DNA of 64,000 nt from an uncultured Anaerolineales bacterium (GCA_964458115.1 CAYWIC010000002.1:5936-69935); one strand, 5' to 3'. Counted from the first letter of the stretch, positions 57,908 to 60,001 are shown. The notes: generated by a model from the letters alone, not told the origin. Numbers and translations are program-made.

Positions 57908-60001
57908 ATGACTGAATCTCAACTCCGCCAACGTCTGGAAGCACTCCGCCAGGAGCTGCGCACTCATAATTACCAATATCACGTGCTCGATGAGCCCTTG
58001 ATCAGCGATTTTGAGTACGATCAGTTATTGCTGGAGCTGCGTAAGATCGAAGAGCAGCATCCCGAATGGATCACCCCCGATTCCCCATCCCAGAGAGCAG
58101 GCGCCCCCCCGGCTGAAAAATTCGAAAAAATCCGTCATCCCGCCCCAATTCTCAGTCTGGGTAATGCCTTTGATGCCGAGGACGTATATGGCTGGCTTGA
58201 ACGCATTGCCAAGATCGATGAGCGCGCCCTGGATGCGGATTTCGTCGTCGAACCCAAGCTGGATGGATTGAGCGTAGTGCTGCACTACCGTGATGGCATC
58301 TTTGTTCAGGGTGCTACCCGCGGTGATGGCGAAGTGGGGGAAGATATAACAGAAAATTTGCGCACAATTCGGGCGTTGCCGTTGAGGATTCCCCTCACCC
58401 CAAGCCCCTATCCCTCTTGGAGAGGGGGAGGGGATAAAGGGGAGCGGGTGAGGGCTCCGTCCAATCTTGTTGTGCGCGGTGAAGCTTTCATTCGTCTCTC
58501 CGATTTCGAAGAACTCAACCGGAAACAAGAAGCCGCAGGAGAAAAGACCTACGTTAATCCGCGCAACACCGCCGCCGGAGCCTTGCGTCAATTGGATTCG
58601 AGTTTGACCGCCACACGACCACTGACTATATTGGTTTACCAGATTGTGGCATTTGAAGCGTCAGAGCTCGCGTTGTCACAACCTGCGACTCAATTTGAAA
58701 CCATCGCATACCTGCGCTCACTCGGGTTTCCGACTCCTGAAAGCGACTTATGTGACAATCTCGACGCAGTCATCACAGCTCACAAACGATGGGAAGTCCG
58801 GCGTGATAATTTAGAATATGAGATCGATGGTATGGTGATCAAGATCAACGACCGCCAGCTCTTCGATGACCTGGGGGTAGTGGGCAAAGATCCACGCGGC
58901 GCGGTGGCATTCAAATTCCCTGCCCAAGAGGTTACCACGCAGTTAGTGGATATCGGCGTCAATGTCGGTCGCACCGGCGTGCTGACCCCATACGCCATGC
59001 TCGAACCGGTAGAAGTTGGCGGAGTGGTGGTCCGTCAGGCCACACTGCACAATTTCGATTTCATCTACGAGAAGGATATCCGTGTGGGTGACCGCGTGCG
59101 GGTCAAGCGGGCTGGCGATGTGATTCCCTATGTCATCGGTCCCGTCGAAGCCGCCCGTACTGGCGAAGAACAGCTTTATACACCCCCCGAAACCTGTCCC
59201 GATTGTGATCAGCCTGTCGAGCGCATCGAGGGCGAGGTGGCCTGGTACTGCGTCAACGCTGCCTGTCCTGCGCAGATCGTGCGCAACATCGAGCACTTTG
59301 TCTCGCGCGGGGCCATGGATATTGTTGGATTGGGGGTGCGGATTGTAAAACAGCTTGTCGAGGAGGGAATGGTGGGCGATGTGGCTGATCTCTACACCCT
59401 GGAGCGGAGTGCCTTGCTGGGTTTAGATGGGTTTGCCGAAAAGAAAGCTGATAATCTGCTCGAGGCGATTGCTGCCTCCAAAGGCCAACCTTTGAGTCGT
59501 TTACTCACAGCCTTAGGGGTGCGTGGCGTTGGGGAAGTCGTCGCCTCGGACCTGGCGAGTCATTTTGGGAGCTTGGATGCCCTGGCTGCAACCTCCGTCG
59601 AAGAACTGGAATCCATCGAAGGCATCGGCCCAAATATCGCGCAAGCCATCGTAGATTGGTTCCAGCGACCAGCCAATCGGGGTGTATTGGATAAATTGCG
59701 CACCGCTGGCGTTTGGCCATTGGAGACGAAGGCCGCTCAAGGTCCAGAATCACCACAAACGTTATCCGGGTTGACCTTTGTGGTCACGGGCACCCTTTCT
59801 GGGTTTACCCGTACAGAGGCGAAGGCGTTCATCCAAGCTCAAGGCGGCAAAGTCACAGGATCAGTCAGTAAGAAAACCGATTATCTGGTTGCAGGCGAGA
59901 AGGCCGGCTCCAAATTGACCAAGGCGCAAGAATTGGGTGTAAAGGTGATTGGAGAAGACGAGCTACGTCACATGGTTGATCAGGCTGGTAATCCAAATTG
60001 A
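57908..60001 (+). CDS. ligA: NAD-dependent DNA ligase
   Basis: KLDG adenylation motif, [17 protein letters not shown], Zn finger CPDC...C..AAC, BRCT domain. Confidence 0.97.
58392..58454. repeat. Family B palindrome embedded in frame in ligA
   Basis: CCCTCACCC...GGGTGAGGG spanning 63 nt, encoding [20 protein letters not shown]. Confidence 0.82.

Follow-up and report, generated by a model that had tools for sequence, protein, structure and literature searches.

A BoxC/PIT/TMECO-type palindromic repeat carried in frame within the ligA gene of an uncultured Anaerolineales bacterium

The ligA gene and the element within it

The stretch of DNA analysed here, referred to as the window, comprises 64,000 nucleotides from an uncultured Anaerolineales bacterium (GCA_964458115.1 CAYWIC010000002.1:5936-69935), and all positions are counted from its first letter. 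It contains a complete gene for NAD-dependent DNA ligase, ligA, in which a 63-nt palindromic repeat is carried without loss of the reading frame. A preliminary description of this DNA had proposed that the repeat is the same element as two intergenic ones in the window, that it encodes a Pro/Gly-rich stretch in the loop just before motif III, and that it had created new peptide sequence in this lineage. The features of the gene and of the element are listed below.

57908-60001, + strand: ligA, NAD-dependent DNA ligase, complete, 697 aa (open reading frame (ORF) list, Pfam, 2owo)
58256-58258, + strand: motif I lysine, K117 (alignment)
58392-58454, + strand: degenerate BoxC/PIT/TMECO-type palindromic repeat, 63 nt (sequence, termini shared with the intergenic copies)
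58392-58400, + strand: left terminal 9-mer CCCTCACCC, pairing with 58446-58454
58405-58433, + strand: inner hairpin of C-block, TGG loop and G-block (sequence and folds)
58405-58417, + strand: C-block CCCCTATCCCTCT, an arm of the inner hairpin
58421-58433, + strand: G-block AGAGGGGGAGGGG, the other arm, of which 11/13 positions pair with the C-block
58439-58454, + strand: second G-block GGGGAGCGGGTGAGGG, the final 9 nt of which are the right terminal 9-mer
58446-58454, + strand: right terminal 9-mer GGGTGAGGG (sequence)
58481-58483, + strand: motif III glutamate, E192 (alignment)

The product has the full set of LigA domains by Pfam (Nlig-Ia, adenylation/NTase, OB, Zn finger, HhH and BRCT) and matches E. 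coli LigA (2owo) along its full length with E=1e-167. Motif I (K117-x-D119-G120, with K117, D119 and G120), motif III (R190-G191-E192, matching the ...VRGE of E. coli) and the zinc-finger cysteines C430, C433, C448 and C453 are all invariant in a 99-sequence family alignment. We take the motif III glutamate of the E. coli enzyme to be E173. An AlphaFold2 (AF2) model computed from the family alignment has a mean pLDDT (predicted local distance difference test) of 85.5, and a fold search with this model returned LigA structures as its top matches. By its domain set, its catalytic motifs and its four zinc-finger cysteines, the protein is a LigA.

The element begins at the second base of codon P162 and closes with the first base of A183, R182 being its last full codon, so that the conserved Pro162 codon is partly built from the opening bases of the left 9-mer. 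Its layout is CCCTCACCC CAAG CCCCTATCCCTCT TGG AGAGGGGGAGGGG ATAAA GGGGAGC GGGTGAGGG. The first 13 nt of the second G-block mirror those of the first at 11/13 positions, which gives the C-G-G order that defines 'potential intrastrand triplex' motifs. The encoded peptide, exactly the one given in the preliminary description, is Pro-rich and then rich in Gly and charged residues, and the insert ends 10 residues before E192 with the motifs intact, so the placing of the element just ahead of motif III also holds. Both the sequence and the 697-aa ORF bear out a 63-nt element in frame, and we regard the carriage of a palindromic repeat within ligA as confirmed.

Kinship with two intergenic copies

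The exact 9-mer CCCTCACCC occurs six times on the two strands of the window, against 0.51 expected, and none of 100 shuffled sequences reached six (0/100). The occurrences form three convergent pairs (36856/36935-36943, 38607/38685-38693 and 58392/58446-58454), with spacers of 45-70 nt between the paired 9-mers and no other exact match. The proposed identity of the ligA element with those beginning at 36856 and 38607 is therefore upheld by identical inverted termini. The two intergenic copies and their neighbours are as follows.

35702-36697, - strand: FGE-sulfatase gene
36856-36943: intergenic copy 1, 88 nt, between the FGE-sulfatase and CrtI-like amine oxidase genes (9-mer pair)
36922-36943: GGGAGAGGGGTTGGGGTGAGGG, the 3' end of intergenic copy 1, the G-G part of the TMECO pattern
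37061-38599, + strand: CrtI-like amine oxidase gene
38607-38693: intergenic copy 2, 87 nt, between the amine oxidase and squalene/phytoene synthase genes (9-mer pair)
38742-39695, + strand: squalene/phytoene synthase gene

All three copies have perfect terminal inverted repeats of 9-11 nt and share inner hairpins of the form CCCTCT.. / ..AGAGGG. They differ in how well they fold. As single-stranded DNA, intergenic copies 1 and 2 are far more stable than their shuffles (z=-5.1 and z=-5.3), whereas the ligA copy barely beats its own (z=-1.9 as DNA, z=-1.2 as RNA). With a hairpin so far below the intergenic copies in stability, the ligA copy is a decayed member of the group.

Assignment to the BoxC/PIT/TMECO family

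BoxC, PIT (potential intrastrand triplex) and TMECO are successive names for the same repeat (Hoyne & Maher 2000; Holder et al. 2015, PMC4666352). The TMECO pattern, 5'-CCCTCNCCC N3-6 GGGNGAGGG N3 GGGNGAGGG, consists of a C-block, a G-block and a mirror G-block, and was counted 3610 times in 262 proteobacterial genomes; G/C-rich motifs are mentioned in cyanobacteria too (PMC4666352). Copies are often paired in inverted orientation to give a larger palindrome, are tied to local sequence or genome instability, and have no reported transposon link or associated transposase (PMC4666352). An isolated TMECO oligonucleotide forms a triplex and no stable triplex was detectable in vivo; in E. coli the motif has neither promoter nor terminator activity, and the copies of strain K-12 are described as 'always located intergenically' (PMC4666352).

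Within intergenic copy 2, the minus strand of 38607-38639 matches the TMECO pattern exactly (CCCTCTCCC-AAT-GGGAGAGGG-GTA-GGGTGAGGG). Together with the G-G part at 36922-36943, this match places the family in this genome. The strict pattern found no match in the ligA copy, and an Rfam search of the whole window at the gathering threshold returned no family. The ligA copy keeps the block order, C(13)-TGG-G(13)-ATAAA-G(13+3), and has both family 9-mers exact at its ends; judged by these shared termini and this architecture, it is classed as a degenerate BoxC/PIT/TMECO member. The window elements and the published family have in common the 9-mers CCCTCNCCC, GGGNGAGGG and GGGTGAGGG, the C-G-G block order, a dispersed, multi-copy distribution, frequent inverted pairing and the lack of any known transposase. 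They differ in host, which here belongs to the Chloroflexota whereas the published census is proteobacterial, and in that the ligA copy lies inside an essential gene whilst the E. coli copies are reported to be all intergenic. The genic location is a point of difference and no ground for excluding the ligA copy from the family.

The insert compared with other LigAs

We aligned the 120 best LigA homologues, all from Anaerolineae/Chloroflexota and 66-93% identical (counts out of 121 include the window sequence), and defined the loop as the stretch between the conserved LPLRIP and VVRGE. Loop DNA was read at 57 loci; L-numbers denote loci and P-numbers LigA homologues. The loop ranges from 11 to 41 residues across the family. 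It is longer than 13 residues in 86/121 sequences and no longer than 13 in the other 35, of which 31 have exactly 12 (for example VDPDGPPAPAYL). The window loop has 25 residues, a net gain of 13 over the basal 12, and against it E. coli LigA has a gap of 15 residues exactly at this loop. The alignment thus identifies the segment as an insertion, and relatives do not share the length and sequence of the loop, which is what would have refuted the preliminary description. No hairpin was found in the short-loop DNA among the 57 loci. Among close relatives there is no truly empty site: the nearest ones have a hairpin repeat of another kind at this position, so that the ligA element may have replaced an earlier insert rather than entering an unoccupied loop.

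In the AF2 model, residues 165-177 have pLDDT values below 50 and form a coil between the strands 143-146 and 186-195, so the insert is probably a disordered surface loop.

BoxC/TM-like inserts occupy the same LigA position in other Anaerolineales (L003 and L007 by DNA, P0008 and P0025 by peptide only). The view that the repeat has written new peptide into the loop stands; neither the insert nor the repeat family is private to the lineage, and nothing in the data shows the new peptide to be useful. One relative, L001, is an independent metagenome-assembled genome (MAG) of an uncultured Anaerolineales with a LigA 92-93% identical to that of the window, and carries the orthologous element with point differences of its own. 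The element is 87.3% identical in nucleotides to that of L001, and the gene as a whole 87.9%. We considered, following the literature on 'instability', that the element might evolve faster than its gene; overall this is rejected by the two figures just given, and only the 5' half of the insert is lower (75.9% identity, against 97.1% for the 3' half).

Turnover of repeats at the LigA loop

Other hairpin repeats fill the same loop in close relatives. At L002, L004, L008 and L010 it contains GACCGAC arrays followed by CCGTCYY and encodes TDDRRPTTD..PSPVPRPPS; the GGACGGA/TCCGTCC array at L011 is perfectly inverted (-43.5 kcal/mol), and arrays of this kind are assigned to L004 too. L005 has a short GTTGAACGCTCAACGTT palindrome, L006 an AGGTAAT/ACCTAAT hairpin in a 30-residue loop, and L027 and L057 have GGGAATT-type arrays. 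Two to three stacked BoxC-type units make up a 63-residue loop in another Anaerolineales ligA (L019:2881-3069), which folds at -107.9 kcal/mol. The 3' flank GTTCCARCGAATYT is common to TM-type and 'VERS'-type loops. Outside the loop, GACCGAC, GGACGGA, GTTGAACG.TCAACG, AGGTAAT and GGGAATT repeats were absent from the 8-kb ligA loci and from the window, which is a small sample; in a scan of the genome collection, GGACGGA arrays were dispersed and multi-copy in many genomes and often formed perfect hairpins.

A neighbour-joining tree of LigA was computed with both variable loops taken out and bootstrapped over 500 replicates. P0008 (BoxC-type) groups with P0015 (heptamer-type) at 99%, P0012 (BoxC-type) with the heptamer-type pair P0017 and P0018 at 97%, and P0005 (short palindrome) with P0007 (heptamer-type) at 92%; the window and P0001 join P0003, of heptamer type, at 76%. 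The bearers of BoxC-type loops were monophyletic in 0/500 replicates. As loop type conflicts with the LigA tree, the loop has changed its content several times. Either insertion and replacement have recurred there or short patches have been recombined, and we make no choice between the two. That the 3' peptide is near-identical in the window and P0008 speaks for some recombination, or for a common source copy.

BoxC-type (LPKGEGARVRAN, TPGPSPGGRGES, LPEGEGLG) or heptamer-type peptides are also gathered by a second loop of the adenylation domain, which follows residue 253, in P0011, P0012, P0014, P0018, P0028 and P0033; the window LigA has no repeat there. That a second LigA loop collects such peptides favours a picture in which insertions land widely and last only in permissive loops.

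Spread of the family and other in-frame copies

A scan with the pattern CCCTCACCC-N42-72-GGGTGAGGG, with one genome per species, gave at least 120 loci. The matches listed come from Chloroflexota, Acidobacteriota, Planctomycetota, Verrucomicrobiota, Cyanobacteria, Nitrospirota and other phyla, and among them are Alpha-, Beta- and Gammaproteobacteria, including Enterobacter. Inner C- and G-blocks of the family type are present in 103/126 of the elements among these matches, and the strict TMECO pattern in 50/126; the remainder of the 126 includes some chance matches. Also among the matches listed, 37 elements lie in stop-free stretches extending at least 60 codons to either side. Pfam confirms that several of them lie inside proteins.

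L091: beta-lactamase domain 47-392 spans the element at 225-253
L096: PMT_2 domain 98-252 spans the element at 178-197
L119:622-2310, + strand: Methylibium isoleucyl-tRNA synthetase (IleRS), whose class I tRNA-synthetase domain spans the element at 300-328
L179: element within the MutL linker
L129:3763-6759, - strand: Anaerolineales aconitase, with five tandem GRGEGVRGSPA units in frame in its N-terminal part

The peptides of the in-frame elements all resemble that of the window, with the form PLTP.P.P...G[ER]G...V R G/A. Since several copies confirmed by Pfam encode similar peptides, in-frame carriage is a property of the BoxC/PIT family and no single accident. A literature search found no published account of in-frame carriage by BoxC/PIT elements. 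As a separate observation, the IleRS of L119 is another essential enzyme with a BoxC-type element, from a different phylum. At L190:541-974, four tandem BoxC-type elements with 117-nt spacing lie upstream of an ORF that, judged by eye, is cobyric-acid-synthase-like.

We also considered that a near-absence of stop codons in every frame might explain why the element is tolerated. This was rejected, as the window copies have 2/6 frames open and the sampled ones are only modestly above random. The TGA inside GGGTGAGGG means that at most 4/6 frames of an element can be open.

Other repeats and gene arrays in the window

Eight perfect or near-perfect palindromes, apparently intergenic, lie at 10580-10634, 13713-13763, 26622-26674, 35642-35690, 40580-40631, 57765-57813, 60073-60124 and 61433-61483. 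They have arms of 23-26 nt and loops of 3-7 nt, are A/T-rich outside and GGGGTG-rich inside, and look like bidirectional terminators or a second family resembling repetitive extragenic palindromes (REPs). Two of them bracket ligA, one ~95 nt upstream of its start and the other ~70 nt past its stop. Around the palindrome at 26622-26674 is a dispersed repeat of ~100 nt (26603-26699), parts of which recur at 13846-13877 and 51042-51081 (families D17 and D19). Three head-to-tail 19-nt units similar to TTAGAAAAAACTAATAGAA occupy 44868-44928 (family D14). On the minus strand of 30874-35602, three adjoining genes (593, 317 and 611 aa) hold five tandem alpha/beta-hydrolase units of the polyhydroxybutyrate (PHB)-depolymerase/esterase type, 850-1030 nt apart, as a local paralogue array beside the FGE-sulfatase gene.

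Interpretation and alternatives

We consider it likely, with good though not complete confidence, that a decayed copy of a dispersed BoxC/PIT/TMECO-type palindrome has become fixed in frame in ligA as a tolerated passenger loop, at a site that acts as a sink for unrelated hairpin repeats. The starting point would be a composite palindrome, with outer arms CCCTCACCC/GGGTGAGGG around a unit of C-block, G-block and G-block, one copy of which was fixed within ligA. It would survive there because its length is a multiple of three, because the frame in use has no stop and because it lies in a length-tolerant surface loop of the adenylation (NTase) domain. It would be transcribed and translated with ligA; the loop is 13 residues longer than the basal one, and the catalytic motifs are untouched. 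This loop and the one after residue 253 serve in Anaerolineales as a sink for several unrelated hairpin-forming repeats, which over time are gained, replaced and eroded. Because a LigA that is otherwise highly conserved accommodates inserts of unrelated sequence as well as the short loop, the segment is best read as a tolerated disordered passenger, and it is most likely a passenger rather than a functional module.

Several observations weigh against this interpretation. The ligA copy departs from the strict TMECO pattern, having 13-nt stems with mismatches and a second loop of 5 nt rather than 3. The closest loops of 13 residues or fewer are found only at ~71% identity, and as there is no clean empty site nearer than this, neither the exact boundaries of the insertion nor a target duplication can be read. 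Over its 3' half the insert is nearly fixed, and the peptide encoded there, GRGGG[DE]KGERVR, recurs almost unchanged in P0008, a more distant homologue at 79% overall identity; this could reflect constraint on that half. The data themselves establish the presence, family and frame of the element, its status as an insertion with respect to homologues, the predicted disorder, the recurrence of repeats at this site and the in-frame copies in further proteins, whereas translation of the segment, like its neutrality and its mode of arrival, is something that we infer.

The 3' peptide shared with P0008 despite that divergence also speaks for a rival account of the patchy distribution, in which each repeat type inserted once, long ago, and the loop was then shuffled as a 'cassette' among co-occurring Anaerolineales by short-patch homologous recombination. 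Such exchange would account for the strong discordance between loop type and the loop-free tree, with its groupings at 99%, 97% and 92% and 0/500 for monophyly, and for the 3' flank GTTCCARCGAATYT in both TM-type and 'VERS'-type loops. However, independent hits are plausible given that many genomes carry multiple, dispersed copies of both repeat families, the stacked units of L019 point to repeated local insertion, and the flanks are too conserved for breakpoints to show; we regard cassette exchange as a real possibility, though not the one that we favour. A functional insert, providing a new interaction or regulatory surface or a G-rich structured mRNA or DNA (hairpin, G-quadruplex or triplex) that tunes expression or local recombination, seems to us improbable. 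The frame has been kept through the ~12% nucleotide divergence between the window and L001, with the 3' half 97% identical, the C-G-G mirror architecture is retained at 11/13, and the motif is tied to local genome instability (PMC4666352). Yet the peptide is predicted to be disordered, the hairpin has decayed relative to the intergenic copies, close relatives manage with unrelated inserts or the short basal loop, and the E. coli motif has neither promoter nor terminator activity nor a stable triplex in vivo (PMC4666352).

It is very improbable that there was no insertion at all, and that an old, fast-evolving, low-complexity segment of LigA resembles the palindrome through chance of composition. 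The hypervariability of the loop (11-41 residues) and the fold of the ligA copy, only marginally above its shuffles, would suit such a segment, but the element shares its exact inverted 9-mer termini with two intergenic copies and there is no further exact match in 64 kb, the inner C- and G-blocks are of the family type, and the basal loop, of 12 residues in 31 lineages, is about as short in E. coli. Least probable of all is a mis-joining of the repeat into ligA during assembly. One contig from a second run (X2) does begin exactly at the left end of the element, from 58391, as is typical of assemblers at repeats, and the read depth is low (~3x). Another contig, assembled from a single marine-metagenome run, nevertheless spans 58200-58633 with zero differences from the window, the orthologue in the independent assembly of L001 has the insert and shows substitutions of its own, and the reading frame is kept.

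Comparison with known systems

The preliminary description had drawn a comparison with Rickettsia palindromic elements (RPEs), which are reported, in an account that cites Ogata et al. 2000 (PMC10969869), as palindromic elements of ~150 bp in frame in Rickettsia genes. As far as that account goes, the outcome is alike: a small palindromic repeat sits in frame in housekeeping genes and adds peptide where the fold allows. In-frame copies in unrelated ORFs, an RPE-like trait, are seen here too (ligA, IleRS, a beta-lactamase-fold protein, PMT_2, MutL and aconitase). Set against RPEs, the present elements belong to an unrelated sequence family, judged by their BoxC-type consensus with no direct alignment to RPE sequences made, are 63-88 nt long rather than ~100-150 bp, and are carried by a free-living marine Anaerolineales rather than an obligate intracellular alphaproteobacterium; by the same account RPE peptides are conserved family-wide, whereas the window peptide is low-complexity Pro/Gly. 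The comparison therefore holds for the event and not for the element. The ligA case is an RPE-like phenomenon in another phylum and from another repeat family, and a new instance of an event whose kind is known.

Heptanucleotide repeats include the cyanobacterial short tandemly repeated repetitive (STRR) sequences and GGGAATC / GGGGAYT in Xanthomonas and Nostoc, and 7-11% of the Xanthomonas repeats are intragenic (PMC4692102). Like the BoxC-type elements they are dispersed and form hairpins, and they occupy the same LigA loop in relatives; they differ in being absent from the window ligA and in having units of 7 nt, three of which keep the reading frame. With MITEs (miniature transposable elements with inverted repeats) and REP/REPIN sequences the window elements share a short, non-coding, dispersed form, inverted repeats at their termini and a location that is mostly intergenic. 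In-frame fusions are mentioned for some MITEs, namely ERIC and Anabaena MITEs, in the account of PMC10969869. No direct repeat was seen on inspection to flank any of the three window copies, and no parent insertion sequence (IS) was identified, no genome-wide search for a transposase having been made. Classical REPs are described as having a GTAG/CGTC head (PMC3733652); this head is absent from the element termini CACCCTCACCC / GGGGTGAGGG in the window, where REP-associated tyrosine transposases (RAYTs) were not searched for.

Significance

A family studied for 25 years as purely intergenic is carried in frame by essential genes, and DNA ligase provides a clean and checkable example. Close relatives that have, at one and the same codon position, a 12-residue loop, a BoxC-type insert, a heptamer hairpin or a short palindrome constitute a natural experiment, through which the arrival of repeats, the tolerance of an essential enzyme and the effect of structure-prone intragenic DNA on expression and stability can be tested. 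For annotation, the family explains many low-complexity segments of the 'PLTPSPSP...GRGEG...VR' kind in metagenomic proteins, and for protein engineering the inserts mark two insertion-tolerant loops of LigA. More speculatively, and in our view rather doubtfully, BoxC/PIT palindromes may be pan-bacterial and regularly write Pro/Gly-rich peptides into conserved enzymes, with the LigA loop as a landing pad for mutually replacing hairpin repeats, where the TM type would have appeared separately at least four times among close Anaerolineales. If this were true, it would point to hairpin-targeted or template-switch insertion and replacement, rather than to random insertion filtered by selection.

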